This document shows, piece after piece, positions 19,255 to 42,420 of a stretch of 64,000 bases of DNA (the first letter of the stretch is position 1; each line of letters begins with the position of its first letter). A model generated the notes under the pieces. It was not told the origin of the DNA. It searched no databases and saw only the letters and a program-made list of their open reading frames with translations. This stretch comes from Candidatus Kaiserbacteria bacterium. Lineage in GTDB: Bacteria; Patescibacteriota; Minisyncoccia; Phycocordibacterales; Phycocordibacteraceae. Location: contig JACRFL010000002.1 in the NCBI GenBank assembly GCA_016217905.1, positions 18,817 to 82,816 of the forward strand, read 5' to 3'. Made by a program: the position numbers and the translations under genes.

Positions 19255-20454
<1,200 letters not shown>

Positions 20455-20654: not shown

Positions 20655-20744
20655 ATTACTTCCTACTCGCGATGATGTCTTGGGCGATATTGTTCGGGAC
20701 AGTGTCGTAGTGGTCGAATTCCATGGTCATCGAGCCGCGGCCTT
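20655..20744. repeat. Relic duplicate of the fusA 3' end (90 bp, 100% identical to 21293..21382)
   Basis: Direct sequence comparison. It encodes ...[30 protein letters not shown], identical to the EF-G C-terminus. Confidence 0.9.
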
Positions 20745-20747
20745 TTG

Positions 20748-21014
20748 TTAGATACGGTAAATCCAACTGTGCGGCCCGCAAGTGAGAAATAGCGCGGTCG
20801 AGGCGTCGAGCCAACGGAAAATAATCCGATACTGTCGATTGATCCTGAAACTCCAAAGTTCGCGCTGTTTCGGATGCAACTTTTCGGTATGCAGTGACGG
20901 ATGGTAAGGATTCTCGCTGAACAATATCCATTTCTTATGTGCTTGCTTCCGCACTGCGGCGGGCAATTCGGCAAAACGCCTTTCGAATTCAAAAGTGGTC
21001 TCGACCGCGATCAT
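20748..21014 (-). CDS. Type II toxin, RelE/ParE superfamily
   Basis: ENPYHPSLHTEKL...ELWSFRINRQYRIIFRWLD...CGPHS matches the RelE/ParE core (..L.enP.....kL.......R....YRiiy.......Ih.igpH). Overlaps the upstream antitoxin by 4 nt. Confidence 0.7.
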   Translation of the reverse strand: MIAVETTFEFERRFAELPAAVRKQAHKKWILFSENPYHPSLHTEKLHPKQRELWSFRINRQYRIIFRWLDASTALFLTCGPHSWIYRI

Positions 21015-21244
21015 GCGGCGCGAATTTTGCTGGGCATATGTACCCGGTGACTACGCCCAGCGTGGTAGTCGGCTTCGGCACGTGTCACACTCGCGAGGAA
21101 CTCCGGATTGAATAAACCAAAGGAAGCTGCGAGTCGCTCCAAGCGGTCGGCGTCAAGCTCAAGCACAAGCTTATGGCTCTTCGAATTTTTCGAACGAATG
21201 GTGGCAGCAATGCGGTTCATGTCCACAGTATAACACGCCTTCAT
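21011..21244 (-). CDS. Putative antitoxin partner of the RelE/ParE toxin (small; family uncertain)
   Basis: 77-aa ORF immediately upstream of, and translationally coupled to, the toxin. Located in the low-GC insert. The start may be the internal MNRIAATI. Confidence 0.45.
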   Translation of the reverse strand: MKACYTVDMNRIAATIRSKNSKSHKLVLELDADRLERLAASFGLFNPEFLASVTRAEADYHAGRSHRVHMPSKIRAA

Positions 21245-21293
21245 GAATTAAAGAAAATCGCCCAGGATTGATGAGTACGGCGTATCGGCCAAA

Positions 21294-23441
21294 TTACTTC
21301 CTACTCGCGATGATGTCTTGGGCGATATTGTTCGGGACAGTGTCGTAGTGGTCGAATTCCATGGTCATCGAGCCGCGGCCTTCGGTCATGGAGCGGAGTG
21401 TGGTGGTGTAGCCGAACATCTCCGAGAGCGGCACCTTTGCATGCACGACCTTGTTCATCCCGCGCTCTTCCATTCCTTCTATCTGCGCGCGCTTCCCGGA
21501 GAGGTTACCGGTGATGTCGCCCATGAACTGGTCCGGCACGACGACCTCGACGCGCATAATCGGCTCGAGAATGACCGGCTTCGCTTTCTGCGCCGCTTCC
21601 TGAAAGGCCATCGACGCGGCGATCTTGAAGGCGATTTCGGATGAGTCGACGTCGTGGTAGCTGCCGTCATAGAGGTCGACCGAGATGTCGACCATCGGGA
21701 AGCCGGCCAGATATCCGCGCGACATCGCCTCGCGCACGCCCTTCTCCACCGCCGGAATATATTCCTGCGGGACGACACCGCCCTTGATGTTGTTGACGAA
21801 TTCGAAATGATCCTCGCGAGTAACGTTCTTCGCCACTTTCGCTTCCGGATCGACCGGCTCCATCTTCTTCATCTTGATCTTCACGTGGCCGTACTGACCG
21901 CGGCCGCCGGTCTGCTTGATGTACTTCCCTTCGGCCTCCGAGGAGCCGAGAATCGTCTCGCGATACGCCACTTGCGGCTTGCCCACGTCCGCGACGACGT
22001 TGAATTCGCGCTTCATGCGGTCAACGAGAATTTCAAGGTGCAGCTCACCCATGCCGGAAATGATGGTCTCGTTCGTCTCCTCGTCGGTCTTGATGCGGAA
22101 GGTCGGGTCCTCGTCGCTAAGCTTCCTGAGCGCGATGCCCATCTTCTCCTGGTCGGCCTTTGTCGAGGGCTCGATGCGGAGGCTGACAACTGGTTCGGGG
22201 AATTTGATCTGCTCAAGCACGATAGGGCTCGCCTCGTCGCAGAGCGTGTGCGAGGTCTTCGTATCCTTCAGTCCCACCGCGGCGGCGATCTCCCCGGTGA
22301 ACACCTTTTCGACTTCTTCGCGCTTGTCGGCCTGGAGCCGGACGATGCGGCCAACGCGCTCCTTCGAGCCGGTCGTCGAGTTGTAGACGTAGGAACCGGC
22401 GGTGAGGGTACCCGAATACACGCGGAAGAAGGTCAGCGCGCCGACGAAAGGATCGGTCTGGAGTTTGAACGCGAGCGCACAGAACGGCTCGTCGTCGGAG
22501 GCGTGGCGCTCGATCGGCTCGCCGGTTTTCGGGTTCGTGCCGGTTGCGGGCGGCAGGTCCAAGGGCGACGGTAGATAGTCGACGACCGCGTCGAGCACGA
22601 GCTGTACTCCCTTGTTCTTGAGCGCGCTCCCGCAGTAGACGGGGAAGATTTCGTTATTGACGACCGCCTTGCGCAGGATCGCTTTCAATTCTTCAACGCT
22701 CGGCTCTTTGCCCTCGAGATAGGCGCTCATCGCTTTGTCATCCTGCTCGACGATGCGCTCGATAAGATCGGCGCGATACTTCTTCGCATCTTCGAGAAGG
22801 TTCGCCGGAATCTCGCCCTCAATCACCTCCTCACCCATATTCCCAGAGAAGGTATACGCCTTCATCGCGAGCAAGTCGACGACGCCCTCATGCGCGCTCT
22901 CCTCGCCGATGGGGATCTGCATGCGGATGGCCTTTTTCGAGAGACGATCAAGGATGCTCGCGTAGGAGCGCTCGAAGGAGGCGCCGACGCGATCGAGCTT
23001 ATTGATGAAACAGACGCGCGGTACCTGCGCCTCATCCGCATAGCGCCAGTTGGTCTCGGACTGAGGCTCTACCCCCGCCACCCCGTCGAAGACGACGATC
23101 GCGCCGTCAAGCACGCGCATCGAGCGCTTCACCTCGGCGGTGAAGTCGATGTGGCCGGGAGTGTCGATGATATTGAAGCGAAATTTCTTGGTCGTATCCT
23201 TCTTGTCGGACTCGCCGGTCTTTGTCCAGAAACAGGTGATGGCGGCGGCGGTGATGGTGATGCCGCGCTCGCGCTCCTGCTCCATCCAGTCGGTCGTTGT
23301 CTCGCCCTCATGCACCTCGCCGATCTTGTGCTGGCTACCCGTATAGAAAAGCACGCGCTCGCTGGTCGTCGTCTTGCCCGCGTCGATATGCGCGATGATG
23401 CCGAAATTGCGTACTTTCTCTAACGGATAGTCTCTGTTCAT
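21294..23441 (-). CDS. fusA: Elongation factor G
   Basis: [18 protein letters not shown] and NKLD G-motifs; complete domains I-V. Start set at the [15 protein letters not shown] Met. Confidence 0.97.
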
Positions 23442-23572
23442 AAAGTTTCTAAAAAATAATCCGCCAGCTGGCGGACGCCGAAGCGTTATCAACAGAATAG
23501 CCGAAATGAGAGAAATTGCAAAGTGCAGGTATGCGCAGTAAGATTTAAGAGGAGTTCAAACGAGGAAAAAAG

Positions 23573-23788
23573 ATGGGGAGACTGAAACCAGATTCTGTCG
23601 AGCACATGCTTGGAAGAGCTGATTACTTTGCAGGGCTGGTAACGGAAACGTCTGATCCAGTGTACTGGCCACCGGAAAGGATCCGAGAGGCACTCGCGGT
23701 ATTGCGCCCTGCACGGGACCTCAGGCATGCGACATACGCAACAGCTTGTGCCGCGGCCGAATGTGTAGAGTTCAAGGCAGCGTATTGA
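23573..23788 (+). CDS. Small hypothetical protein (71 aa) inside the hicAB insert
   Basis: GAGGA-type RBS 8 nt upstream. Followed by the terminator at 23811..23835. No recognisable domain. Confidence 0.35.
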   Translation: MGRLKPDSVEHMLGRADYFAGLVTETSDPVYWPPERIREALAVLRPARDLRHATYATACAAAECVEFKAAY

Positions 23789-23810
23789 AGCCTCGCTTCT
23801 CCCATTAACC

Positions 23811-23835
23811 AAAAAACCCGCGTTCCGCGGGTTTT
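23811..23835. terminator. Bidirectional intrinsic terminator (AAAAAACCCGCG-TTC-CGCGGGTTTT)
   Basis: GC stem of 6 bp flanked by an A-run and a T-run. Lies between the hicA/rpsG relic and fusA. Confidence 0.6.
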
Positions 23836-23885
23836 ACATTATTCAAAATCCCTCGACGTCGCCAGGGATGATTTTGTAAACAAAA

Positions 23886-23939
23886 TCACCACGCGAAGTG
23901 GGCGAAGGCCTTGTTGGCGTCGGCCATGCGGTGCATCAT
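23886..23939. repeat. Relic duplicate of the rpsG 3' end (54 nt; about 48/54 identical to 24563..24616, all differences synonymous or in the stop codon)
   Basis: The minus-strand reading gives MMHRMADANKAFAHFAW*. The genuine S7 C-terminus is EMHRMADANKAFAHFAW*. Confidence 0.75.
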
Positions 23940-24172
23940 TTGCCTTGCAACAATTTCAAAAATTCATCCGCTGATATTTTCGCCTGCCTAAGAATGCTGG
24001 CCAAGTCCTTGCGTGATATATCGCGCGAATGACGCGGCACCGTTGCAAATCGTGTCGGATCAGCGGCGTGCCGTAGAAATACGTGACTTCCCTTCTGTCT
24101 AATAATCGTGAACCCCGCCTTAAGGAGCGCGGCGATGATTGTCGCCGCACGAAGCATCGGCAAAATGCTCAT
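23936..24172 (-). CDS. hicA: HicA-family toxin (mRNA interferase)
   Basis: LLKAGFTIIRQKGSHVFLRH...TVPRHSRDISRKDLASILRQAKIS matches the HicA consensus (..GF...RQKGSH......G...TVP.H...L..G.L.SIL.QAGL). Confidence 0.8.
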   Translation of the reverse strand: MSILPMLRAATIIAALLKAGFTIIRQKGSHVFLRHAADPTRFATVPRHSRDISRKDLASILRQAKISADEFLKLLQGK

Positions 24173-24468
24173 GCGTATACGGTAACTGGACCGGCTATTC
24201 TTGCAGTTTTACCCTTTCCGGTTATGTGTCCTTCATCATCAATAACTATTTTTCCGTCATCGAATGCAATTTCGCACAGTCCTTCAATAAGGTCATTCGC
24301 CATGTATTTTGCGTCAGCAAGAGTGGAACCTTGCGTCATTGTTTTTTGAAAGCTTGGGACTTCTACAAGATATAATTTGTCAGACCGGTCATACCATATG
24401 AGCGCATTAAAAATGCCATATTTAGTCTTGATAAGATATTTCCTTTTCATCCGCCAAGTATAGCACAA
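24169..24468 (-). CDS. hicB: HicB-family antitoxin (N-terminal RNase H-like HicB domain)
   Basis: KYLIKTKYGIFNALIWYDRSDKLYLVEVPSFQKTMTQGSTLADAKYMANDLIEGL is close to the HicB N-domain consensus. Overlaps hicA by 4 nt. Start may be the internal MKRKYL. Confidence 0.65.
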   Translation of the reverse strand: MCYTWRMKRKYLIKTKYGIFNALIWYDRSDKLYLVEVPSFQKTMTQGSTLADAKYMANDLIEGLCEIAFDDGKIVIDDEGHITGKGKTARIAGPVTVYA

Positions 24469-24562
24469 CGGCCAATTTTGATTACTACCAAGTGAGTGAG
24501 CGAAAAGAAATTCCTATTTCACTTTTCGAACGAACGCGGGGAGGAAGCTTTGTCCTCAAAGC

Positions 24563-25027
24563 TTACCACGCGAAGTGGGCGAAGGCCTTGTTCGCATCCG
24601 CCATGCGGTGCATCTCGTCCTTCTTCTTAATTGCATCGCCCTCGTTCTTGGCGGCGAGGAGGAGCTCGGCGGCGAGCTTCTCCGCCATCGGCTTCCCTTT
24701 CTTCGCGCGTGCCGCGGTAATCAACCAGCGGAAGGAGAGAGCGAGGCGCCGATTCTGCGGCACTTCCCGCGGCACCTGGTAGTTCGCCCCGCCGACGCGT
24801 CGCGAGCGGACCTCCATCAGGGGCGAAACGTTGCGCAGCGCCGCTTCGAAGGTCTCGAGCGGGTCGGCGCCGCCTTCTTTAACCGCGGCGAGCGCGTCGT
24901 AGACAACCGCGCGGGCGGTGTCCTTCTTCCCGTCCCACATGACCGCATTGATAAAGCGGGTGAGCGTCTCCGAGCCGTAGGTGAGGTCGGGGCGCCAGGT
25001 ACGCTTCTTTTTAAGGGGTCGGCGCAT
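24563..25027 (-). CDS. rpsG: 30S ribosomal protein S7
   Basis: FINAVMWDGKKDTARAVVYDAL...VGGANYQVPREV. Confidence 0.95.
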   Translation of the reverse strand: MRRPLKKKRTWRPDLTYGSETLTRFINAVMWDGKKDTARAVVYDALAAVKEGGADPLETFEAALRNVSPLMEVRSRRVGGANYQVPREVPQNRRLALSFRWLITAARAKKGKPMAEKLAAELLLAAKNEGDAIKKKDEMHRMADANKAFAHFAW

Positions 25028-25028
25028 G

Positions 25029-25442
25029 TTATTTTGCCGACGGGCGCTTCGCGCCGTAGCGCGAGCGGGCGGTGCGGCGCTTCTCGAGACCGCTTGTGTC
25101 GAGCTTGCCGCGCACGATGGTGTACTGCACGCCGATGTCCTTCACCCTGCCGCCGCGAAGCATCACGACCGAGTGTTCCTGGAGATTGTGCCCCTCGCCG
25201 GGAATGTAGGCGGTGACTTCCATCCCGTTGGTGAGGCGGACGCGGGCGATCTTGCGGATGGCGGAGTTCGGCTTCCTCGGAGTCTTGGTAGTCACCTTGG
25301 TGCATACGCCACGCTTAAAAGGCGAAGGATAGTAGGTCGGACGATTCGCGAGCGCATTAAAACCGCGGGCCAAGGCGGGCACGCTCGTCTTCGACGATTT
25401 CGACTTTCGCCCCCTCTTGGAGAGCTGGTTGATGGTGGACAT
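25029..25442 (-). CDS. rpsL: 30S ribosomal protein S12
   Basis: [15 protein letters not shown]...[19 protein letters not shown]...[14 protein letters not shown]. Confidence 0.97.
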
Positions 25443-25572
25443 TTAGAAAAAGAAGACCCGAGGTGGGTCACAAGCAATATAAAGGAATGGTGAGAGGAAT
25501 GCAACTTGGGCAGGCCGTAGGGAAAGTGGTTTGAATCTTTCCCGCATTTTCCTACAGACTACAATCTACTCC

Positions 25573-26235
25573 CTACAAACTATTTTCATCGATCGGCTCG
25601 CGGTAAGGGTCGGACGAGTACGCTCTTGGGAGCGCGGGGTTCGCGGGCGTGACGGGAATCGCGGCGGGGCGGGGCGGGGCGGGAGGTTCTGTCTGCAGTA
25701 TAGGAGGGGCGAATCGCGGTTCCGGAATCCGCGGCGGGACCTTGTTGAACTCGATATGCGGCTCCTCGTGATCCTCGAGCAGCCGGTCGCTCTCCATCGA
25801 CCTCGGAGTTGGGGAGGTCTGACCTTCCCCACTACTCACGGGAGGTTGCGGGGGTTGCGGAATGTAGCGCGGCGCTGGCGCGCTCATCGCCCGCGGCGCC
25901 GAGGGCGGTGCCGCGCCCCTCCGCTCCTCTTCCCGCAGCGGTACGAAGATCTGAGCATTGACATCCTGCACGATGCCGTCGACGGTCTCCCGGTCGAGAT
26001 GTGCCTCCTCGGCAAGCGCCTGAACGAACTCGTCCGGGTTCTCGACACCCATCAGGAGCAACATTATTTCTCGCTCGAGCACGCCGCCCTGATCGATGCG
26101 CAAACCGTACTTGGTCATCATATTCCTTGCGACTGCCGTATATCTCCCCTGCGTGAGATATGTGCGTATCACCGGCGGCAAGGTCTGCATCACTTGCTTG
26201 ACATCATCCTCTAGATTTTGGTTTTGTGGATCCAT
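25573..26235 (-). CDS. Hypothetical protein: globular N-terminal domain of about 105 aa plus a Pro-rich, low-complexity C-terminal half
   Basis: PPxPP-rich tail (APPSAPRAMSAPAPRYIPQPPQPPVSS...). Last gene of the four-gene operon upstream of rpsL. Confidence 0.5.
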   Translation of the reverse strand: MDPQNQNLEDDVKQVMQTLPPVIRTYLTQGRYTAVARNMMTKYGLRIDQGGVLEREIMLLLMGVENPDEFVQALAEEAHLDRETVDGIVQDVNAQIFVPLREEERRGAAPPSAPRAMSAPAPRYIPQPPQPPVSSGEGQTSPTPRSMESDRLLEDHEEPHIEFNKVPPRIPEPRFAPPILQTEPPAPPRPAAIPVTPANPALPRAYSSDPYREPIDENSL

Positions 26236-26252
26236 ACGTAATGTATCTCCGA

Positions 26253-28331: not shown

Positions 28332-28333
28332 AT

Positions 28334-31038: not shown

Positions 31039-31079
31039 AGGGAAGTATAGCAGCCGCACCCACACGGAGAAGTAGTTGT

Positions 31080-31832: not shown

Positions 31833-31994
31833 ATGATGTATAATTCTATACTACCTATGAACAATAACCGTATTACAGGAATTTCTAAATAAGGGGCATG
31901 CGGGATGGAAGGGTTTGCCGGAACACAAGAGACGACACATCGAAACCGCTCTTAAAGAACACTTCGGCATCACCGAACCGGAAGAAGAGGCTGT

Positions 31995-33926: not shown

Positions 33927-34106
33927 AAACCGCTCTCCACAGGCACCGGGGAGGGCGATTGACTGTCCGCCCCCCTTGGCTATACTCGAGGTATCGGCTG
34001 TATGGAGGTACTCAAGGAATGGCTTATATAAGCCATTTTTGTATTAGGAAGACCCACCGAAATCCCTGTTTCCCTTATCGACTCGAATAAACATCTTTCC
34101 GACCCG

Positions 34107-35201: not shown

Positions 35202-35249
35202 TTTCTATACAACGGAGGATCCCCCCTGGCGGCGCGATTGTGCACCGGC

Positions 35250-36830
35250 TTATTCGAATCCGAAGAGGCCTCGCGGACGGTACTGGAGCGCCTCGTGCAC
35301 AAAGGAGGGCGTAACAACATCGGCGCCGCATAGGTCGGCGATGGTGCGTGCGACGCGCATGGTGCGGTGGAAACTCCTCGGCGAGAGCGAGAGACGGGCG
35401 GCCGCCGAGGTGAGAGCTTCTTTTGCGGCTGTAGTGAAGCCGCTCTTTTCATCGAGCTCCCTGCCCGAAAGCGCCGCATTCGTCGCGCCCGGTCTCCCGG
35501 CGCGCTTCTGCGCCCTCGCGCGCGCCGCGACGACGCGCGCCCGCACCGCCTCGGAGGCTTCGCCGCTGCCGAGCTTCGCGAGTGTGTCGTGCGGGACGAG
35601 CGGCACCTCGATCCAGAGGTCGAGCCGGTCGACGATGGGGCGCGAAATGCGGCGCGCCTGTTTCGCCGCGGCGCGCAGCGCGACGCGCGCGTCGTTGGAC
35701 AGGGTGTCCGCGGGATTCATCGCCGCGACGATCATGCAGTCGGCCGGGAACGTGATCGTCGCACGCGCACGTGACACCGTAACGATGCGGTCCTCGAGCG
35801 GCTGCCGGAGCGCCTCGAGCGTCCGCGAGTCGAACTCGGGAAATTCGTCCAGAAAAAGGACGCCCTTGTGCGCGAGCGTCACCTCCCCCGCCTTGGGGAA
35901 GGTGCCCCCGCCGACGATAGCGACATGCGATATCGAATGGTGCGGAGCGCGAAACGGCGGCCAGTGAACCGCCTCTCCTCCCTGCAGGAGCCCGGCGGTC
36001 GAGTGTATCGCGGTCACTTCGAGCACCTCGTCGTCGGAGAGCGGCGGGAGGATGCCGGCGAGCGCGCGGGCGAGCATCGTCTTCCCCGTTCCCGGCGGAC
36101 CGTAGAAAACGATGTTGTGCCGCCCCGCCGCGGCAATTTCCAAAGCACGCTTCGCGCTCTCCTGTCCTTTGATATCGCTAAGGTCGATCGCGGGTGGCGG
36201 CAGTTCTGCTCGGCGATCGCGCAAGAGGCGCGGAAGCGGCCTCTCGCCCTTCATATGATGTAGCAGTTCGGCGAGCGATGTCGGCGCATAGACAGCAACG
36301 CCCTCGGCGAGAAGCGCTTCGCGGGAGTTTCCCGGCGGGACGAAAACGGTCTTTGTTCCGCGCCGCTTCGCGGCGAGCACCTGCGGGAGGACGCCGCGCA
36401 CGGCGCGCAGCGAACCGTCGAGCGCGAGTTCCCCGATGAGCAACATCTCTTCCGCAGGCGGTGATACGTCGCCCGCAGCGATAAGGTACGCGAGCGCGAG
36501 CGCGAGATCGTAGTGCGAACCCTCTTTCTTCAAATCCGCTGGCGAGAGGGAGAGAACGATGCGTTTATTCTGCTGCTTCGGCGGCTTGTAACCGGAGTGG
36601 CGTATTGCGGCGCTGATCCTGTCGCGAGCCTCCTCAACCGCCTTGTCGGCGAGACCGACGACCGCGAAATTGTGCAATCCGCGCGTGAGATCCGCCTCGA
36701 CATTGACCAGCTCCGCTCCCGAGCCGACCGGCTGCGCGGCGAGCGTTTTCGCGTAACCGAGTTTCGGCAATGAGCGAGCGGTCGGAGAAGGCGCGCGAAC
36801 CGATGCGGATTTCGGCCGTGCCGCGTTCAT
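35250..36830 (-). CDS. comM: YifB/ComM-family Mg-chelatase-like AAA+ ATPase
   Basis: N-terminal ComM/Lon-like domain, Walker [12 protein letters not shown], sensor motifs and the C-terminal Mg-chelatase subunit ChlI domain. Confidence 0.85.
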
Positions 36831-36836
36831 GGAGTA

Positions 36837-37184
36837 TCACAAGTGCTCGACACAGGTCGTCGCGGCGGGGTCGGCCTCGAGCCGCTCCTCTCCTATCGGG
36901 CGGCCGCACACTTCGCAGATTCCGTATGTTTTCTTCTCGATTCTCGCAAGAGCCGCAAGCACGGTGTCGTAACGCGCCTCAAGATCGGCAAGAACGGCCT
37001 CGTTCCTTTCGCGGCTGATTACTACATCCGCCTGATCGGCCAGATCCGCCTCGGAGCCCGTCTCCGAGGGGACCGCTTCCCAATCGCCCGGAACTGCAGG
37101 GTTCCTCCGGCCGATACCCCCCATCTCTGACTCGAGCTTGAGCTTCTCCGCCTCAAGCTTTTTCCTGAAATGCTCGGTCTTCAT
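36837..37184 (-). CDS. DksA/TraR-family zinc-finger protein
   Basis: Coiled-coil N-terminus plus a C-terminal CEVCGRPIGEERLEADPAATTCVEH finger. Confidence 0.6.
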   Translation of the reverse strand: MKTEHFRKKLEAEKLKLESEMGGIGRRNPAVPGDWEAVPSETGSEADLADQADVVISRERNEAVLADLEARYDTVLAALARIEKKTYGICEVCGRPIGEERLEADPAATTCVEHL

Positions 37185-37207
37185 TCCACTATGGTAGCAG
37201 ATAAATG

Positions 37208-38323
37208 CTATCGCGTCCGCGATGTGGCGAGCCGATTGAGTATCTCGGAAAATACGGCCGGGTCGCGCGCGATGACCAGCGTCTTCTGATTCCAGTAACC
37301 ATAGAGAACGATACTGCGGCCAGCAGTGTCGCGGTACACGCGTACGTCGTGATTATCGACGACCTCGTCGCGGAAAACGGCCTGGGGCGCCATCGTTGTC
37401 GTCGCGTGCGGCGAGGAGGTCGCCGCAGAAGCGGAAGCGGCGGCCGGATACGCCGGGAAAAGCGCCCCGAGATCGCGCGGCATACGCGCCTCCCACGCGA
37501 GCAGCCCGCCGAACGTGCCGCTGTACGACGAAACGGAAAGTATGAAAAACGGGCTCGCCGAGCCGCCCGCGTTCGCGACGCCGGCCATGCTGCCGTCTGC
37601 GTTTATGTTGCGCACAAGAACATCGGGCGCCGAGAGAGGGAGCGCCGAAAAGACGCTTTCGGCGGACGTGCTTGCGACGTAGAGAAGCCGGACAGCGCTC
37701 GGAGCGAGCGGACGAGCGACCGACTCCTCGATTGCCGCAAGAAGCTCGGCGCCCGTTCCCGAAAGCGGCTCGCGCTCGTCGACGAATATCGGAGCCATCG
37801 CGCCGGCCTCCGGCGTGACGGGAACCGTTATGGTCACATAACTGCGATACGCGCTGTATGCTCCTATCCCGCCCGCGATAAGAAGCACGGCGCCCGCGCC
37901 GATATAAAGCGCGTTTCCCCACGGGAACTTTTTCTTCTGAAGCGGCGCCTCACGGCCCGCATCCTGCTCGGCGGCGAGCACCGTTGCGGTCGATGCGCGA
38001 GTCTCTTTCACCCTTTCTGAAAAATCTCCGGAATACGTTTCCAGAGGAGATACGAGCGGCGGGGTCGCCTTTGCCGGCACCGGCTTCTGTATCGGAGCGG
38101 CGGTCGGAGCCGGAGTAGGCGGCAGAGGCGATCCCGCGACGAGACGTTCCGAAGGAGCGGGATGCGCGGGTTCAAGAGGGGCCAGATCGGGAACGCCGCC
38201 TTTCTGGAGGATCTCCATGTCGCCGGCGAATGTGCGAATGTATTTCTCCGGCTCCTGCCCGCCGGCAGATGACAATCCTTTGTCCGGAGCGGAGGACTGC
38301 GTCGTCGTTTTAGTGTCCATCAC
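37208..38323 (-). CDS. Hypothetical single-pass membrane protein with a Pro-rich N-terminal region
   Basis: One TM (ALYIGAGAVLLIAGGIGAYSAY). No recognisable catalytic motif. Confidence 0.45.
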   Translation of the reverse strand: MMDTKTTTQSSAPDKGLSSAGGQEPEKYIRTFAGDMEILQKGGVPDLAPLEPAHPAPSERLVAGSPLPPTPAPTAAPIQKPVPAKATPPLVSPLETYSGDFSERVKETRASTATVLAAEQDAGREAPLQKKKFPWGNALYIGAGAVLLIAGGIGAYSAYRSYVTITVPVTPEAGAMAPIFVDEREPLSGTGAELLAAIEESVARPLAPSAVRLLYVASTSAESVFSALPLSAPDVLVRNINADGSMAGVANAGGSASPFFILSVSSYSGTFGGLLAWEARMPRDLGALFPAYPAAASASAATSSPHATTTMAPQAVFRDEVVDNHDVRVYRDTAGRSIVLYGYWNQKTLVIARDPAVFSEILNRLATSRTR

Positions 38324-38360
38324 TGCCTATAGTAGCGTACCCGACGCGCGGCGCTACTCG

Positions 38361-38876
38361 TTATGCCCGCGACACGATGGTGAATGTACGCGGATCGTCG
38401 CACATGTCGGTGAATGCGTGCGCGGCTTCCCTTAATTTGCTTGACGAGGATTTGCCGAAGGCGATGACTTCAACCTGGCACCCTTCGTTGAGGTCGAGAT
38501 ACTGGATGAGCGGCACGAAGTCGCCGTCGCCGGTCACGAGAACGACGGTGTCGAGCTTCGGCGCGAGCTTCACCGCGTCGATCGCCATGCCGACATCCCA
38601 GTCGGCCTTCTTCGCGCCGTCGGCGAAGACCTGGAGGTCTTTCACCTTGGTCTCGATGCCCATCTTGGTAAGCGCTTCGAAAAAGTTTTTCTCCTCGCCG
38701 CTCTCCGTCGAGATAACGTACGCGATGGCGCGCACGAGGATGCGGCCGCCGACGGCCTCCTCGAGGATCTTTCCGAAGTTGACGCGCGCTTTGTAGAGAT
38801 GCTTCGCGCTGTGGTAGAGATTTTGCGTATCGATGAACACGCCGACGCGCTGGGCTGGATGTTTGATGACTGCCAT
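38361..38876 (-). CDS. NYN-domain (LabA/DUF88-like) putative RNase
   Basis: VGVFIDTQNLYHSAK...VLVTGDGDFVPL motif pattern of NYN/PIN-like domains. Start set at the internal MAVIKHP. Confidence 0.65.
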   Translation of the reverse strand: MAVIKHPAQRVGVFIDTQNLYHSAKHLYKARVNFGKILEEAVGGRILVRAIAYVISTESGEEKNFFEALTKMGIETKVKDLQVFADGAKKADWDVGMAIDAVKLAPKLDTVVLVTGDGDFVPLIQYLDLNEGCQVEVIAFGKSSSSKLREAAHAFTDMCDDPRTFTIVSRA

Positions 38877-39007
38877 ATAAATACAGTAAGTAGTTTGTAG
38901 GGAGTAGGTTGTAGAAAAATACAAAAACTCCCCGTGCTATTAAAATTCAGCGGCGTAGCCGCCACTCTCATACTACCCCCTACTCCCTATCCCCTACAAC
39001 CCTGGTG

Positions 39008-39274
39008 TTATTTCTTCAACCCCAATTTCTTGATAAGCGCATTGTAGCGGCGCTTGTCGGAAGTCTCAAGATAGCGCAAGTGAGAGCGGCGGTCGGCGAC
39101 CATCTGGAGCAGTCCCCGGCGGGAATGAAAATCCTTCGGGTTCTTCTTCAGATGCTTCGCAAGCTCGTCGATCTGCTTTGAGAGAAGCGCGACCTGCACA
39201 TCCGGCGAGCCGGTGTCCATGTCGTGCCGGGCGGTGCTTTTCATAACCGCCATCTTCTTCTTCGTGGTAAGCAT
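39008..39274 (-). CDS. rpsO: 30S ribosomal protein S15
   Basis: DTGSPDVQVALLSKQIDELAKHLKKNPKDFHSRRGLLQMVADRRSHLRYL. Confidence 0.9.
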   Translation of the reverse strand: MLTTKKKMAVMKSTARHDMDTGSPDVQVALLSKQIDELAKHLKKNPKDFHSRRGLLQMVADRRSHLRYLETSDKRRYNALIKKLGLKK

Positions 39275-39365
39275 GAGTAAAGCCACCTTACCACGCCTTG
39301 CGAAAATGTGCAAGTGACGCAGAACGCGATCTGCGCACAATATTCTGCGTTATACTACAGTTACG

Positions 39366-40286
39366 ATGAACGTCGAAAACGCGAAACGGCAATTTCTTGA
39401 ACACACCGAGATAGAGCGCGGCCGCGCAGTGAAGACCGTCGAGAACTACGACCGCTACCTTTCGCGCTACTTCGCGCAGATGGATATCAAAGACATCGGC
39501 GACATCAGCGAAGAGAGCGTCCGCGCATTCCGCCTTTGGCTCAACCGCCAGCCGGGAACGAATACCGACTCAATGAAGCGCCGCACGCAGAATTACTACA
39601 TGATCGCGCTCCGTGCTTTTTTGAAGTTCCTCCGGAAGCGCGATGTCGAGGCCATCAGTCCTGAGAAAATAGAGCTTGCGAAGCTCCCCGAGCGCCAGCT
39701 CGACCTTATTACCACGGCCGAGCTTGAGCGGCTTATGCAGGCGCCGCGGGAGGCGTTTGAAAAGGAAAAGGATCCCGATAAAGCAAGGAATTATTTGCGC
39801 GACCGTGCCATCCTCGAACTCCTCTTCTCGACCGGGCTGCGCGTGTCCGAGCTCTGTTCGCTTAATTCCGATATCGACCTATCGCGCGACGAGCTCTCGG
39901 TGCGTGGCAAGGGCGAGAAGGTGCGCGTCGTCTTCCTCTCGAGCGCTGCCAAGGAGGCGGTGCGGAATTATTTGAAAGCGCGAGACGACATGGAGGAAGC
40001 GCTCTTTGTCGACGGGCGGCCGAACAAGCTGCACCGCATTATCCCGCGTGACATCCAGCGGCACTTGAAGGCGTACGTCGCGCGCGCGGGCATCACAAGC
40101 GTGGTCACTCCCCACACCCTTCGCCACGCCTTTGCGACCGACCTGCTCTCTAACGGCGCCGATATCCGCTCGGTCCAACAGCTCCTCGGCCACGCCTCCA
40201 TCAACACCACGCAGATCTACACGCACATCACCGACAGTCATTTGCGAGAAATACACAAGAAGTACCACTCGCGTTCGAGAGGTTAG
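39366..40286 (+). CDS. xerD: Tyrosine site-specific recombinase XerC/XerD family
   Basis: N-terminal SAM-like core-binding domain. Catalytic region with R...HTLRHAFATDLLSNGADIRSVQQLLGHASINTTQIYTHI (R-H-R-Y). Confidence 0.85.
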   Translation: MNVENAKRQFLEHTEIERGRAVKTVENYDRYLSRYFAQMDIKDIGDISEESVRAFRLWLNRQPGTNTDSMKRRTQNYYMIALRAFLKFLRKRDVEAISPEKIELAKLPERQLDLITTAELERLMQAPREAFEKEKDPDKARNYLRDRAILELLFSTGLRVSELCSLNSDIDLSRDELSVRGKGEKVRVVFLSSAAKEAVRNYLKARDDMEEALFVDGRPNKLHRIIPRDIQRHLKAYVARAGITSVVTPHTLRHAFATDLLSNGADIRSVQQLLGHASINTTQIYTHITDSHLREIHKKYHSRSRG

Positions 40287-40338
40287 TGACACATACAATT
40301 TCAGAAACGGAAACGAAGAGGCGCCGCGTGCGCGGCGC

Positions 40339-40611
40339 CTAGTCATCATGCATTATTGCCCACTCCACTTCGCCTCGGTCGTCAAACCCGAAGCACAAAT
40401 AAATCTCTTCAAAACCGTAAGTCGGGAGACATTCGTTTGCGCAGTCGATGATGTCGAGCAACGGCACAACGAGCCTTCTCCCTTCTTGCTCGAGACCGAT
40501 AAGGATACTTTCGCTCGCCTTAGGATCGATTAGTATCCCCCAATTGCCGTAATCGGCGTCTTCGGATTCTTGCATGAACCCCACGAGCTCGCGGATCGTA
40601 AAAAGAGACAT
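40339..40611 (-). CDS. Hypothetical small protein
   Basis: ORF of 90-110 aa with no recognisable motif. Start ambiguous (40611 or 40671). Confidence 0.3.
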   Translation of the reverse strand: MSLFTIRELVGFMQESEDADYGNWGILIDPKASESILIGLEQEGRRLVVPLLDIIDCANECLPTYGFEEIYLCFGFDDRGEVEWAIMHDD

Positions 40612-40700
40612 AGTCACCTCGCGTGAATGAGCATCCGGACCCCACTTTACGCCAATATCACAACGAGGCAAGCCACGTCATTGCGGTATACAATAGCCGT

Positions 40701-41471
40701 ATGAAAATCGTCTCGTGGAATGTAAATGGTCTGCGCTCGCTCGCCAAGGACGGCTACTGGGAATCCTTCTTGAAGGGCATAAAGCCGGACATCTTCTGCT
40801 TGCAAGAGACCAAGGCGAACCCGGAGCAGCTCGGAGAGGAGTTCCTCTCTCCTGACGGCTACTCGGCATTTTTCTCCTCTTGCCGGGTACGCAAGGGTTA
40901 CAGCGGCGTCGCATTGTATTCAAAGATTGAGCCTCTCAAAGTTATTTACGGCCTGGGAATACAGGAATTTGACCAAGAAGGTCGCTTTATCGGCGCTGAA
41001 TACGAAGACTTCTGGCTCTTAAACGCGTACTTCCCCAACGCCGGTCAAGGCCCCGAGCGGCTTGATTACAAATTGCGTTTCTATGACGCCTTCCTCGCAT
41101 TCGCGGAGAAATTGCGCGAACAAAAGCCGGTCATTTTCTGCGGTGATGTGAACACCGCACACGAGGAGATAGACCTCGCCCGGCCCAAAGAAAATGACGC
41201 AAACACTGGCTTTCTCCCCGAAGAGCGCGCCTGGATAGACGAGGTCGTGAGCGCCGGCTACGTCGACTCCTTCCGCCATTTCCATCCCCACACCAAGGAG
41301 GCCTACAGCTATTGGGACTTGTTTACCCACGCCCGCGACAGAAACATCGGCTGGCGTCTCGACTACTTCTTCGTCGCGAGTGAATTTATAAAACATATTA
41401 AAAAAGCCGAGATCCACCCAGACATTTACGGCTCCGACCACTGCCCTGTCTCGATTACCATCTCTTCTTAA
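40701..41471 (+). CDS. xth: Exodeoxyribonuclease III (AP endonuclease, EEP family)
   Basis: MKIVSWNVNGLRS..., QETK, ..GDVN..H..IDL.., SYW and a C-terminal GSDHCP motif. Confidence 0.9.
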   Translation: MKIVSWNVNGLRSLAKDGYWESFLKGIKPDIFCLQETKANPEQLGEEFLSPDGYSAFFSSCRVRKGYSGVALYSKIEPLKVIYGLGIQEFDQEGRFIGAEYEDFWLLNAYFPNAGQGPERLDYKLRFYDAFLAFAEKLREQKPVIFCGDVNTAHEEIDLARPKENDANTGFLPEERAWIDEVVSAGYVDSFRHFHPHTKEAYSYWDLFTHARDRNIGWRLDYFFVASEFIKHIKKAEIHPDIYGSDHCPVSITISS

Positions 41472-41717
41472 TTATTTATACGTATACGTAGTATCGTTCC
41501 TTCGACCGACAAATTCGATTTTGACCGTGTTGTGTGTGGTATAAGAAAAAATGACCCGGATATCGCCCTTCCGCACGCGGTACATATTTTCCGTTCCTTT
41601 GAGTTTTTTCACATTCAACCCGATGAGATCATTGCGGCTTAAACGCGCGATTAGGATATTCAGAGATTCACGCTCCTTCTTTGTCAGTGAGTTGAGAAAT
41701 TTATTTATTTTTTGCAT
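41472..41717 (-). CDS. Type II toxin, RelE/ParE superfamily
   Basis: NMYRVRKGDIRVIFSYTTHNTVKIEFVGRRND matches YRVRVGDYRIIY...VGHR. Its stop codon abuts the xth stop. Confidence 0.7.
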   Translation of the reverse strand: MQKINKFLNSLTKKERESLNILIARLSRNDLIGLNVKKLKGTENMYRVRKGDIRVIFSYTTHNTVKIEFVGRRNDTTYTYK

Positions 41718-41970
41718 CGAATCGCTTCATTGCAGTAATAAATTTATCTATTGACATACCGCCTTCCTTTCTGAAATCGACAACCGTCTCCCAAGTGCCC
41801 TCGTCACCCCACTCGTCCACTGGGACCAGCTTGAAGACCGGCCGAGAGCGGCGTACGACCGTAAACGATTTGCCCTGTTCCGTCTGGCGAATATAGGTAC
41901 TCATATTCTCCCGGAGCTCCTTGAGCCCGATAATCCGCTGTACCTTTTTTGTTGCGATAGCCATATGCAC
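41701..41970 (-). CDS. Phd/YefM-family antitoxin
   Basis: IGLKELRENMSTYIRQTEQGKSFTVVRRSRPVFKLVPVDEW matches the Phd/YefM N-domain. Overlaps the toxin start. Confidence 0.65.
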   Translation of the reverse strand: MHMAIATKKVQRIIGLKELRENMSTYIRQTEQGKSFTVVRRSRPVFKLVPVDEWGDEGTWETVVDFRKEGGMSIDKFITAMKRFDAKNK

Positions 41971-42018
41971 GAAGTTTATCTAAAGATAATCTTCCCGTCA
42001 ATGGGTTATATACACGCC

Positions 42019-42067
42019 CACGACATTCTACGGCTCCGACCACTGCCCCGCCTCCATTTCGCTCTAA
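42019..42067. repeat. Relic duplicate of the xth 3' end (diverged; 26/27 nt core identity gacatt(c)tacggctccgaccactgccc, frameshifted by 1 nt, ends in TAA)
   Basis: Without the extra C it reads DIYGSDHCPASISL*. The genuine xth end is DIYGSDHCPVSITISS*. Confidence 0.5.
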
Positions 42068-42346
42068 AGGACAGTCCGCGGAGCGGACTGAGCAGGTTAT
42101 CCACACTGTGTCCTTTACAGTGTCTTTTATGAGAATATACTCAACAGAGGACGGGATGTTCTTTATTGATCTGTCCGGCATCAGATGCGCCAGACGAGGC
42201 ACCTGCCACCGCTGCGCGGCGATCCGCGACACAAGCCCTTTGGCACGGTGTTCCTTAGTCGGAGCGCCAGCATGCATTAAGCAAAAAGCTGCCCCACTCT
42301 CTGGTCGGAGACCCTATCATTCACGCCCCTGCTCCTTTTTGTCTCC

Positions 42347-42368
42347 GGCCGCTCTGGGCGGCTTTTTT
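42347..42368 (+). terminator. Intrinsic terminator-like hairpin (GCCGC-TCTGG-GCGGC then TTTTTTG)
   Basis: GC stem plus a T-run on the plus strand, downstream of the xth relic. Confidence 0.4.
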
Positions 42369-42420
42369 GTTCCACGTGGAACTTATTTCATATACAACTA
42401 TGGAAGTCAGACTTCGATAG

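Follow-up and report, generated by a model that had tools for sequence, protein, structure and literature searches.

Insertion of restriction-modification (RM) genes with a long duplication of the target is a little-known pattern that was reportedly described by Kobayashi's group. RM systems of this kind insert with long (30-400 bp) target duplications and without mobility genes, their repeats often span start or stop codons and their hosts are mostly naturally competent (PMC2853133); that article cites Nobusato et al. 2000. The three toxin-antitoxin (TA) cassettes analysed here resemble the RM insertions in having no mobility genes and in having repeats that lie over stop codons, whereas their cargo differs (TA genes in place of restriction-modification genes). 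The cassette layout matches a pattern already on record, and the view taken in the original prediction, that the mechanism looks previously undescribed, is not supported. The cassettes lie in a stretch of 64,000 nucleotides (the window) from a CPR bacterium, Candidatus Kaiserbacteria. Our preferred reading, to which we give slightly better than even odds (roughly 0.55), is that they are old, independent TA insertions with a stop-spanning target duplication, produced by recombination at gene ends and maintained by gene conversion and addiction.

A direct-repeat search of the whole window together with self-BLAST revealed that, tRNA genes apart, no direct repeats in the 64 kb are stronger than three pairs formed by the 3' ends of fusA, rpsG and xth (Table 1). 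The fusA pair is perfect (90/90 nt, E 2e-43), the rpsG pair matches at 47/50 nt (94%, E 5e-15, not about 89% as first stated) and the xth pair aligns either ungapped (41427-41463 with 42029-42065, 31/37) or with one gap (41421-41456 with 42022-42058, 33/37, E 5e-4). Two tRNA-Gly genes aside, all other repeats within 5 kb in the window search were at most 35 nt long and at most 80% identical. Each pair encloses one type II TA pair (550-625 bp) and the layout is shared: the stop codon of a conserved gene is followed by the TA pair and then by a displaced copy of the last 37-90 nt of that gene. The repeat searches thus confirm the original prediction of three separate insertions with one geometry. 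By Pfam and NCBIfam the cargo is TA only, with no recombinase gene in any of the three cassettes, and there are no terminal inverted repeats at any of them. The structures are not an assembly artefact: run SRR12113407 supplied independent Logan contigs that match window positions 25125-23905 (L001) and 40905-42471 (L180, which takes in the xth end, cassette and relic) at 100% identity, and the same architectures were found in other genomes from other samples. The low GC content of the cassettes is not decisive: all host genomes retain it, and the gene for the CCA-adding enzyme, a resident, has a GC3 as low as theirs.

Table 1. Features of the three TA cassettes and their surroundings, in window coordinates.
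Feature	Position	Strand	Basis or remark
tuf (EF-Tu), downstream neighbour of cassette 1	19255-20454	-	399-aa ORF
Relic 1, last 90 nt of fusA incl. stop codon + 1 nt	20655-20744	-	90/90 vs 21293-21382
Cassette 1 toxin, HigB/RelE-like, 88 aa	20748-21014	-	Pfam PF05015, 32 bits, above cut-off
Cassette 1 presumed antitoxin, 77 aa	21011-21244	-	overlaps toxin start by 4 nt
Spacer, fusA stop to antitoxin	21245-21292	-	extended -10 box TGtTATACT, 6 nt before ATG (sequence reading)
Live copy of repeat 1, functional fusA 3' end	21293-21382	-	direct-repeat search
fusA	21294-23441	-	TIGR00484 EF-G, 1072 bits
fusA promoter-like box + hairpin/T-run leader, directly upstream of fusA start	23459-23500	-	hairpin scan: 23476-23459
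orf71, 71 aa, between rpsG relic and fusA	23573-23788	+	ORF on opposite strand
Terminator-like hairpin CCCGCG-GAA-CGCGGG + T6 after rpsG relic	23815-23845	-	sequence reading
Post-relic segment D	23844-23887	-	homologous to spacer behind live rpsG stop in L087, L100
Relic 2, last 50 nt of rpsG	23888-23937	-	47/50 vs 24565-24614
HicA toxin, 78 aa	23936-24172	-	Pfam PF07927, 59 bits
HicB-like antitoxin, 93 aa from ATG at 24450	24169-24450	-	weak HicB_lk_antitox match, E 0.11
85-nt element directly after live rpsG stop	24478-24562	-	shared with L002
rpsG	24563-25027	-	TIGR01029, 193 bits
Live copy of repeat 2, functional rpsG 3' end	24565-24614	-	direct-repeat search
rpsL	25029-25442	-	gene identification
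XerD-like tyrosine recombinase, resident neighbour outside cassettes	39366-40286	+	Pfam Phage_integrase + SAM_1
xth	40623-41471	+	Pfam Exo_endo_phos, 100 bits
Live copy of repeat 3, functional xth 3' end	41421-41471	+	direct-repeat search + self-BLAST
Cassette 3 toxin, RelE/ParE-like, 81 aa	41472-41717	-	weak ParE_toxin match, E 0.054
Phd/YefM antitoxin, 87 aa from ATG at 41964	41701-41964	-	Pfam PF02604, 32 bits + TIGR01552
Promoter-like site TTGACG-17-TAAACT, between Phd and relic	41973-42001	-	region conserved in L097
Relic 3, xth 3' end copy	42022-42068	+	reads YGSDHCPASISL-stop

The toxin of cassette 1, whose homologues (54-81% identity) are named RelE/ParE toxins, ends 3 nt from relic 1. 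Its 77-aa partner has no Pfam or NCBIfam match; partners occur in L082 (64% identical, same position) and L083 (60% identical). A strict sigma-70 scan found no full promoter in the spacer ahead of this pair. The 6 nt directly upstream of relic 1 are TAACAA, where L082 and fusA itself have TGACCG; TAACAA is a decayed part of the original duplication, and the perfect 90/90 run adjoins these 6 decayed bases. The EF-Tu encoded downstream is 93-95% identical to EF-Tu at related Kaiserbacteria loci.

Behind rpsG, the 85-nt element is 81% identical over 70 nt to L002 4469-4538, with a weaker inverted copy at L002 7498-7428; a two-sequence consensus fold has 4 compensatory pairs, and the element has no Rfam match. 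The HicB-like antitoxin, whose start was read from the sequence and is preceded by TGcTATACT, shares 92% identity with the HicA partner of L087. The HicA stop codon TGA is made across the junction with the relic, which differs from the live end at three positions, all synonymous, and has the stop TGA where live rpsG has TAA. Homology between segment D and the spacer behind rpsG in L087 and L100 (window 23936-23844 versus L087 3117-3209, 79% over 94 nt) suggests that the original rpsG duplication extended about 45 nt past the stop codon. The hairpin that follows was read from the sequence and is absent from the hairpin scan listing; orf71 has no Pfam or NCBIfam match and no homologue at related loci.

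Cassette 3 lies on the strand opposite to xth. Its toxin has 51% identical homologues named RelE by their source, and gene calling on the Logan contig likewise gives Phd a length of 87 aa. The stop codons of toxin and xth are 0 nt apart in the window and 90 nt apart in L097, so the zero spacing is secondary. The relic had been described as frameshifted, but over the aligned part it reads in frame to its stop codon. That stop lies inside a hairpin arm (42062-42073 / 42109-42120), which is also conserved in L097.

All three cassettes recur in other genomes. L082, another Kaiserbacteria genome, has the fusA cassette at the same locus with the same toxin-stop/relic junction (toxin 81% identical in amino acids, 51-nt relic). 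The rpsG cassette occupies the same locus in L087-L094, L100 and L101 (HicA 85%), with orthologous relics at the same HicA-stop junction in L100 (84%) and L087 (decayed), and the xth cassette does so in L097-L099 (RelE-like toxin 77%), where the orthologous relic is 35 nt long and 91% identical to the xth end of its own genome. Between genomes the proportion of synonymous differences (pS) is 0.43-0.89 for the TA genes and 0.53-0.83 for the flanking genes, and 80-89% of synonymous sites in the TA genes differ between the window and L082. The recurrence of the same loci and junctions in Kaiserbacteria with synonymous sites near saturation argues that the three insertions are old and do not form a graded series of recent events. 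Repeat identity had earlier been read as such an age series, a reading that fails at fusA: L082 shares the old cassette and yet each relic matches the fusA end of its own genome, the three substitutions by which the window and L082 ends differ being mirrored, without exception, in the own-genome relic. The perfect fusA relic is therefore a product of concerted evolution (homogenisation) and not a sign of youth. Gene conversion is plausible between repeats of 37-90 nt that lie about 600 bp from each other, its direct support coming from fusA only. At xth the relics of the window and L097, which read as real gene ends, have derived states in common, and something else may conserve them, namely the adjacent TA promoter and a terminator hairpin.

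In the close relatives L003, L004, L005 and L008 the rpsG-fusA site is empty, measures 54-112 bp and has no relic, and the same TA families occur without relics at other loci in L083 and L095. Three further events were found in relatives, with MNT/HepT behind fusA (L004, 26-nt relic), Fic behind rpmB (L021, 32-nt relic) and a large secreted protein behind fusA (L011, 3.2 kb insert, 101-nt relic); repeat length across events runs from 26 to 101 nt. The L011 relic is 98% identical over 101 nt and about 43% over the next 14 nt, the K-stop end being retained (AARK-stop versus ESRK-stop). Approximately 55 other expanded str-cluster spacers in CPR contain no detectable relic.

Across CPR the str cluster is interrupted by varied inserts, the rpsG-fusA and fusA-tuf spacers varying between about 50 bp and over 4 kb, with many kinds of genes inside. 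Each TA pair in the window has its own extended -10 box or promoter-like box, the fusA promoter and leader are conserved in all close relatives, whatever stands upstream, and a promoter-like TTGCAT-17-TATAGT was read between the fusA relic and tuf. It appears from these motifs that fusA, tuf and each TA pair have promoters of their own; together with the hairpin after the rpsG relic and the variable CPR spacers, this speaks against the proposal that TA expression is coupled to the essential operon.

We have also considered that the cassettes are miniature site-specific integrative elements, comparable to cis-mobilisable remnants of larger ones and moved in trans by a tyrosine recombinase whose gene lies outside them (the XerD-like gene being one example), with an attP that carries a surrogate gene 3' end and crossover at a short core such as TYCGMCCACT. 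This 10-mer occurs in each of the three repeat pairs and at no other place in the window (about 0.5 occurrences expected by chance), its distance from the left relic edge being some 24-32 nt throughout, and a comparable shared 9-mer turned up in 0.3% of 3000 trials with triples of real gene 3' ends; it is a hint of sequence preference, something that plain homologous recombination would not lead one to expect. However, the 10-mer was found post hoc, is an in-frame conserved coding motif (FDHY, FAHF, SDHC) that relatives without these cassettes also possess, has no inverted-repeat core around it, is absent from the L004 and L021 repeats and lies 53 nt in at L011. Junctions identical in different genomes would likewise fit integrative elements but are explained equally well by a single ancestral event, and the XerD-like gene, although 1.1 kb from cassette 3, is a conserved resident (84% identical and syntenic in L097 and L098). 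With no free, viral or attP-like copies found and repeats of such uneven length, we consider this explanation unlikely. What stands of the small-cassette claim is the recombinase-free cargo; an active integrative family served by the XerD-like recombinase is not supported.

We put at similarly long odds a true long target-site duplication, in which a staggered double-strand break, its nicks separated by 40-100 nt, would take up a linear TA fragment by ligation and have its overhangs filled in, donor homology playing no part. Such a break would leave an identical structure, the repeats have no counterpart elsewhere in the window and the rpsG duplication, in running past the stop codon, seems to resemble a target segment and not a gene fragment; stop-covering duplications alone would be seen because only those leave the essential gene intact. 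On the other hand, relic and live copy differ as expected of a different functional allele, both in L011 and at rpsG. Later gene conversion with selection on the live copy could mimic differences of this type. No nuclease is known to cut in this staggered way, and the cassette toxins belong to mRNA-interferase families (RelE/HigB, HicA), from which DNA cutting is not expected.

Less probable again is a tandem duplication of gene end and spacer, with a TA cassette later replacing or filling its inner part. This pathway has been discussed, and drawn as an alternative, for rRNA operons (PMC3457768), and the L045 fusA terminator, in three copies around successive inserted genes, and the duplicated promoter of L016 indicate that spacer elements do become duplicated locally in these genomes; nevertheless, two rare events would be needed at each of at least six loci, and the pathway leaves unexplained that in cassettes 1 and 2 the junction coincides exactly with the point where the toxin ORF stops. 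Assembly artefacts, or relics that are conserved regulatory RNAs independent of the cassettes (raised in the original prediction), are largely refuted and deserve almost no credence: a 90-nt perfect repeat could in principle be a mis-join and the xth relic overlaps a conserved hairpin, but the independent contigs, the recurrence in other samples, the relic-free spacers of cassette-free relatives and the lack of an Rfam family match all point the other way.

We favor, then, insertion by recombination through gene ends, which was among the explanations first put forward (as homology-facilitated recombination) and is still a live one. In this scenario three TA operons would have inserted independently into the short spacers behind fusA, rpsG and xth, each bringing a long target duplication over the stop codon of the gene. 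The incoming DNA would have recombined through the highly conserved gene end, either as a circularised fragment with gene end and TA genes that integrated by a single crossover (Campbell-type) or, equally possibly, as a linear fragment that entered by natural transformation and underwent homology-facilitated illegitimate recombination, in which case the toxin ORF would end at the far junction. Genes for competence and homologous recombination are reported from CPR (PMC12455944 and PMC10187176). Neither a donor nor a circular form nor an empty-site allele was observed in the same population, so that the route is inferred solely from end products. Thereafter selection would keep the gene end intact, gene conversion would hold the relic similar to the live end and TA addiction would penalise cells that lose the cassette through recombination between the repeats. 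It is this penalty, we propose, that would make addiction modules the cargo that survives between such repeats.

Three pairs of direct repeats stand out in the 64 kb, and this finding is real and statistically solid. As the original prediction held, a direct-repeat search and self-BLAST place each of three toxin-antitoxin (TA) inserts behind the stop codon of a gene (fusA, rpsG or xth) and before a displaced copy of that gene's 3' end; one copy in each pair is the live end of the gene and the second, here called the relic, lies 602-677 nt further on. The fusA copies agree at 90/90 nt (E 2e-43), as first reported, those of rpsG at 47/50 (E 5e-15), which is 94% rather than the earlier figure of about 89%, with all three differences synonymous, and those of xth at 31/37 ungapped or 33/37 with one gap (E 5e-4). 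The xth relic, initially described as frameshifted, is in frame over the repeat and reads YGSDHCPASISL-stop. Each repeat has exactly two copies in the 64 kb and, within that stretch, is unique rather than multi-copy, and the remaining nearby repeats, two tRNA-Gly genes excepted, are at most 35 nt long and at most 80% identical. Nor are the repeats assembly artefacts: independently assembled contigs of run SRR12113407 are 100% identical to positions 25125-23905 and 40905-42471, and the architectures recur in other genomes.

According to profile searches, the inserts are 548-625 bp long and each is filled by two small overlapping TA genes. Cassette 1, behind fusA, encodes a 77-aa protein without family match and a HigB/RelE-like toxin; cassette 2, behind rpsG, a HicB-like protein and HicA; and cassette 3, on the strand opposite to xth, Phd and a RelE/ParE-like protein. 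Pfam matches above cut-offs were obtained for the HigB-like toxin (32 bits), HicA (59 bits) and Phd (32 bits), the partner proteins giving weak or no family matches. With two small adjacent or overlapping genes, one of which has a known family match, all three inserts can be classed by sequence as type II TA modules.

Positions of genes, repeats and sequence elements (window coordinates unless a locus is named; L-numbers are contigs or loci from other genomes or assemblies)
Feature	Position	Strand	Basis
rpsL	25029-25442	minus	profile search
rpsG	24563-25027	minus	profile search
fusA	21294-23441	minus	profile search
tuf	19255-20454	minus	profile search
xth, exonuclease III-type gene	40623-41471	plus	profile search
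fusA repeat, live end and relic	21293-21382, 20655-20744		direct-repeat search, self-BLAST
rpsG repeat, live end and relic	24565-24614, 23888-23937		direct-repeat search, self-BLAST
xth repeat, live end and relic	41427-41463, 42029-42065		direct-repeat search, self-BLAST
TYCGMCCACT in fusA repeats	20709-20718, 21347-21356		
TYCGMCCACT in rpsG repeats	23897-23906, 24574-24583		
TYCGMCCACT in xth repeats	41433-41442, 42035-42044		
fusA leader	23459-23500	minus	
Extended -10 box, cassette 1	21245-21252		
Extended -10 box, cassette 2	24452-24460		
Extended -10 box, L087	~3190-3200		
71-aa ORF	23573-23788	plus	
~85-nt element	24478-24562	minus	
~85-nt element, L002	4469-4538	plus	
~85-nt element, weaker inverted copy, L002	7428-7498	minus	
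Hairpin with xth relic stop	42062-42120		
Same hairpin, L097	~3110-3165		
Stops of xth and cassette 3 toxin	41469-41474		
Same stops, L097	3740-3830		
Shortened fusA relic and 100-aa ORF, L082	4316-4640		
fusA terminator copies, L045	7129-7164, 9148-9183, 11463-11493		
Promoter copies, L016	2757-2803, 4005-4051		

The same cassettes occupy the same loci in relatives. Protein searches combined with gene context place cassette 1 behind fusA in GCA_016182485.1 (L082; toxin 81% identical, partner 64%), cassette 2 between rpsG and fusA in at least 10 contigs from several metagenomes (L087-L094, L100 and L101; HicA 85% identical, HicB 92%) and cassette 3 in L097-L099, where it separates xth from the CCA-adding enzyme gene and the XerD-like neighbour is present too (RelE-like protein 77% identical). 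The junctions of all three cassettes are also the same as in the relatives: (i) in L082 the fusA relic starts TGACCG as in fusA and the cassette 1 toxin stops at that TGA inside the duplicated sequence, the window having TAACAA at this junction; (ii) in each of the window, L087 and L100, the HicA stop codon straddles the boundary to the rpsG relic; and (iii) the xth relic directly adjoins the promoter region of Phd, both in the window and in L097. Empty sites were found as well, the rpsG-fusA spacer measuring 54-112 bp with a single rpsG end in the close relatives L003, L004, L005 and L008, and fusA-tuf spacers measuring 85-117 bp in more distant Patescibacteria (CPR). The stops of xth and of the convergent cassette 3 toxin are adjacent in the window (TAA/TTA) and 90 nt apart in L097, the spacer between them having evidently been lost by deletion on the lineage leading to the window. 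The fusA relic of L082 breaks off after 51 nt; a 100-aa ORF without assigned family comes next and then tuf, which points to a second insertion in that fusA-tuf spacer.

The three insertions had been thought to differ in age, but the proportion of synonymous differences (pS) between the window and the genomes sharing the cassettes is high at all three. At cassette 2 (hicB/hicA) pS is 0.43-0.50 for the TA genes and 0.61-0.83 for the flanking genes; the corresponding values are 0.80-0.89 and 0.53-0.61 at cassette 1, and 0.66-0.77 and 0.60-0.75 at cassette 3. As estimates from sequence, these values indicate long residence of all three cassettes; none looks like a recent transposition in this genome, and the repeats provide no evidence of current mobility. 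The HicBA cassette may have been exchanged to some extent between lineages. Composition was rejected as a sign of recent import: whichever genome hosts them, the cassettes have a GC3 below that of the adjoining genes, and the gene of the CCA-adding enzyme, a resident, has an equally low GC3.

The relics are 84-100% identical to the live ends, although the intergenic DNA between these genomes is unalignable. Window and L082 show three differences in the shared part of the fusA repeat, and all three are mirrored in each genome's own relic; in the window, the perfect 90/90 run lies directly beside six decayed bases of the original duplication. Given the mirrored differences and the decayed bases beside a perfect run, the fusA relic is not a fresh duplicate but has been homogenised against the live end (or, alternatively, regenerated by re-insertion), and its near-identity is best explained by gene conversion. 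For xth, conversion after the split is not supported because the relics of the window and L097 share derived states with each other. The xth relic adjoins the TA promoter, and its stop codon lies in the 5' arm of a hairpin (CTCTAAAGGACA ... TGTCCTTTACAG) that is conserved in L097 and is probably the original xth terminator, now with the relic instead of the live gene; TA promoter and hairpin may constrain this relic. Repeat identity is not a clock, a point to be weighed by anyone dating such insertions. Between genomes with near-saturated synonymous sites, short non-coding duplicates of the ends of essential genes can still be recognised.

Self-comparison of about 80 related loci revealed three further relic-flanked events: (i) in L004, an MNT/HepT pair directly behind fusA precedes a 26-nt copy of the fusA end; (ii) in L021, a Fic-domain gene behind rpmB precedes a 32-nt copy of the rpmB end; and (iii) in L011, a 3.2 kb insert behind fusA, encoding a secreted protein with a peptidoglycan-binding domain, precedes a copy of 101 nt with 98% identity, in which the final 14 nt diverge and encode AARK-stop versus ESRK-stop in live fusA. 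Duplication lengths are 101, 51, 32 and 26 nt in related events and 90, 50 and 37 nt in the window. When all 81 spacers of at least 150 bp in the str cluster (rpsL-rpsG-fusA-tuf) were searched for relics by local alignment, only L004 and L011 gave matches among relatives, a third match, in a contig of SRR12113407 (L001), being the window's own rpsG relic. The TA families of the window also occur elsewhere without a relic, behind a histidine kinase gene (L083) and behind a glutaredoxin gene (L095). A repeat-flanked pattern without a coding end was observed in L045, where the fusA terminator is copied around successive inserted genes of the str cluster, and in L016, where a promoter is copied in the same manner (copies 83-97% identical).

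Most of the HicA loci obtained in a metagenome scan with a 9-sequence HicA alignment are distant. In 22 of the 55 loci with enough flank (L104, L108, L110, L116, L121, L148, L158, L170, L173 and others), hicAB lies between direct repeats of 30-376 nt, and a gene-end relic is present among them in the rpsG-linked group (L100, L101) only. The other flanking repeats, often multi-copy and intergenic, possibly represent cassette arrays; as they are not gene ends, the distant loci say little on the mechanism considered here.

Several familiar carriers could be rejected. Inverted-repeat searches of the three cassettes found neither terminal inverted repeats nor an attC-like imperfect palindrome, profile searches of the inserts found no integrase, transposase, recombinase or other mobility gene, and close relatives of the cassettes were absent from 2.9 million viral contigs. 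The lack of terminal inverted repeats, together with duplications that vary in length from 26 to 101 nt, speaks against a transposon, IS or MITE; the lack of an attC-like palindrome, with cassettes that are single and stand between housekeeping genes, against an integron gene cassette; and the viral search against a viral carrier. The fusA end and the cassette 1 leader match over 17 nt in inverted orientation, which is at about chance level (an estimated ~0.4 matches expected), and a sliding-window comparison with nine relatives gave no recombination breakpoint near the rpsG 3' end.

There is precedent for this geometry. Insertion with long target duplication was reported first by Nobusato et al. 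2000 (as cited in PMC2853133) and surveyed systematically by Furuta, Abe and Kobayashi 2010 (PMC2853133), and what the original prediction regarded as previously undescribed is therefore not a new kind of element. Restriction-modification (RM) units are inserted without mobility genes and with unique flanking repeats of more than 30 bp, of which the empty site has one copy. These repeats measure tens to hundreds of bp, often lie across a start or stop codon and so leave the neighbouring gene intact; most hosts are naturally competent, the mechanism is unexplained, and a virus-like cycle has been proposed in which the units insert, are amplified by way of the repeats and are released (PMC2853133). 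The term has also been applied to rRNA operons (PMC3457768). Furuta et al. 2010 asked for repeats of more than 30 bp, an empty site with a single copy, an insert of less than 20 kb without mobility gene, and a unique repeat; the window inserts show all four features, with repeats of 90, 50 and 37 nt and with empty sites seen for the rpsG-fusA and fusA-tuf spacers. Like the RM inserts, they are small addiction-type units without integrase or transposase, with unique direct repeats across a stop codon. Unlike them, they carry type II TA cargo (HigB/RelE-like, HicAB, Phd-RelE and, in L004, MNT-HepT), reside in CPR hosts behind targets that include translation genes, and are old structures, common to several species, in which the relic evolves in concert with the live end. 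Since the toxins belong to mRNA-interferase families, DNA breakage as suggested for RM is not applicable to them. Our analysis adds the type II TA cargo, the CPR host group, same-site conservation across species and a relic homogenised against the live end; literature searches gave nothing specific on TA cassettes flanked by gene-end duplications, and, of 32 papers with the term, the 25 listed deal, to judge by title or abstract, neither with TA as cargo nor with CPR bacteria as hosts.

The data show the insertion product itself, that mobility genes are lacking, that junctions are shared, that empty sites exist and that the fusA relic has evolved in concert with the live end, and we infer recombination via the conserved gene 3' end. 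In the likeliest scenario, incoming DNA with a TA operon behind the same conserved gene would recombine through that gene's 3' end, either (i) by single crossover of a circularised fragment, which would necessarily duplicate the homologous fragment, or (ii) by a one-sided homologous anchor and an illegitimate join at the far end, in this case where the toxin ORF finishes. Only events sparing the essential gene are seen, and loss-punishing cargo would persist between long direct repeats that promote deletion. That RM and TA both occur in this geometry and that non-addictive cargo (e.g. the L011 insert) is rarer would follow from the killing of cells losing the cargo. In Campbell-type insertion-duplication, the single crossover of a circle with a gene fragment leaves the fragment on both sides of the insert, and a fragment containing a gene 3' end leaves the gene intact when integrated in this way; in homology-facilitated illegitimate recombination, known from natural transformation, foreign DNA can enter by way of one homologous anchor alone. 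Both routes are laboratory-defined, whereas the window inserts are known from end products alone. The term homology-facilitated illegitimate recombination is used in PMC6382021 and PMC8504540. Genes for competence and recombination are reported from CPR bacteria, and the horizontally exchanged regions of Patescibacteria are reported to include rpsL, tuf and genes of ribosomal proteins (PMC12455944); Saccharibacteria are described as naturally transformable (PMC10187176).

Site-specific integration by a recombinase acting in trans is unlikely in our view, although the main loose end favours it. The 10-mer TYCGMCCACT occurs six times in the 64 kb, inside the three repeat pairs and nowhere else (~0.5 occurrences expected by chance); its distance to the left edge is ~24-32 nt in every relic. 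On the other hand, the motif came to light post hoc, and it is conserved coding sequence, in frame, that relatives lacking these cassettes also possess; the repeats of L004 and L021 do not contain it, and in L011 it is displaced. There is no cognate integrase within the inserts, and the XerD-like gene (Pfam Phage_integrase) is a syntenic resident beside xth in L097 and L098, best read as a resident Xer-type recombinase. Streptococcal ICE and IME in fda, rpsI and rplL restore the gene 3' end from attP, and CIME are integrase-less remnants. The window loci resemble such elements in that the 3' end of a gene occurs in two directly repeated copies, the gene is functional and ribosomal protein genes are known targets, but the inserts are ~0.6 kb with no integrase within or adjoining, repeat length and position vary between events, and no attP-bearing free form was found among viral contigs. 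Chromosomal integron TA cassettes are likewise compact promoter-bearing TA operons between repeats; here, unlike there, no attC-like palindrome, integron integrase or array is present and the repeats are the neighbour gene's own coding end. We consider true target duplication at a staggered break just as doubtful as site-specific integration. Tandem duplication first, with replacement afterwards, is the least probable of these routes.

When the EF-G protein is compared with one genome per species, the window falls within Candidatus Kaiserbacteria (Patescibacteria/CPR), the closest loci being 83-92% identical in EF-G. The rpsG-fusA and fusA-tuf spacers measure ~40-120 bp in non-CPR bacteria and from ~50 bp to >4 kb in CPR genomes, where tuf is often not within 5 kb; 43 expanded spacers hold 74 mixed ORFs, including five pilin-like proteins, five Phd antitoxins and many housekeeping families once each. 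It had been suggested that insertion into this cluster couples TA expression to ribosomal-protein transcription, but such coupling is not required given promoter-like sites of their own at fusA, tuf and each TA pair. The fusA leader has a -10-like box and then a GC hairpin and T-run directly before the start (e.g. GTCCGCCAGCTGGCGGAT TATTTTTT), is kept in every close relative (L002-L009, L087, L100) whatever the insert upstream, and looks like a dedicated promoter with an attenuator-like leader. The promoter-like sequence TTGCAT-17-TATAGT precedes tuf, after the fusA relic. In cassettes 1 and 2, only 6-7 nt separate the start codon from a preceding extended -10 box (TGnTATACT), the same box precedes the TA operon of L087, and cassette 3 has a promoter-like site in its place. 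The TA operons with the extended -10 box show no visible ribosome-binding site; the arrangement suggests that their transcripts are leaderless or nearly so. The predicted promoters of fusA, tuf and the TA pairs, and the varied inserts, argue that the cluster is not one obligatory operon in the window.

A terminator-like hairpin follows the rpsG relic. Between this relic and fusA lies a 71-aa ORF, bounded by a terminator-like hairpin, which has no family match and no homologue in related loci and may be a further small insert in the rpsG-fusA spacer. Directly after the rpsG stop is an ~85-nt element common to L002, a locus without HicAB in which a weaker copy, inverted, closely precedes tuf. 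The two-sequence consensus fold consists of a small hairpin and a longer stem with four compensatory pairs; the element has no Rfam match and may represent either a structured 3' UTR or a small repeat element. Rfam searches found no family in the region, and three tRNA genes outside it only.

The movement of chromosomal TA operons without a visible mobility gene has been poorly explained so far, and these loci tie TA to the insertion geometry of RM, the other main addiction-module class. A speculative extension, to which we give little weight at present, is that CPR addiction modules spread as integrase-free 'hitch-hiker' cassettes, a TA operon with an essential gene 3' end as portable homology arm, in a four-step cycle: (i) recombination between the repeat copies would release a circle of TA operon and gene end; (ii) the circle would be taken up by a related cell and integrated behind the same gene by a RecA-driven single crossover; (iii) integration would regenerate the repeat pair; and (iv) the toxin would kill cells losing the cassette. 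This is the virus-like life cycle hypothesised for RM by Kobayashi's group and, if it is true, TYCGMCCACT might mark a preferred exchange point. For CPR bacteria, the str cluster emerges as a tolerated landing zone because its genes have, by prediction, their own promoters. The loci suggest a general rule in which long repeats invite deletion and only cargo that punishes its own loss persists.
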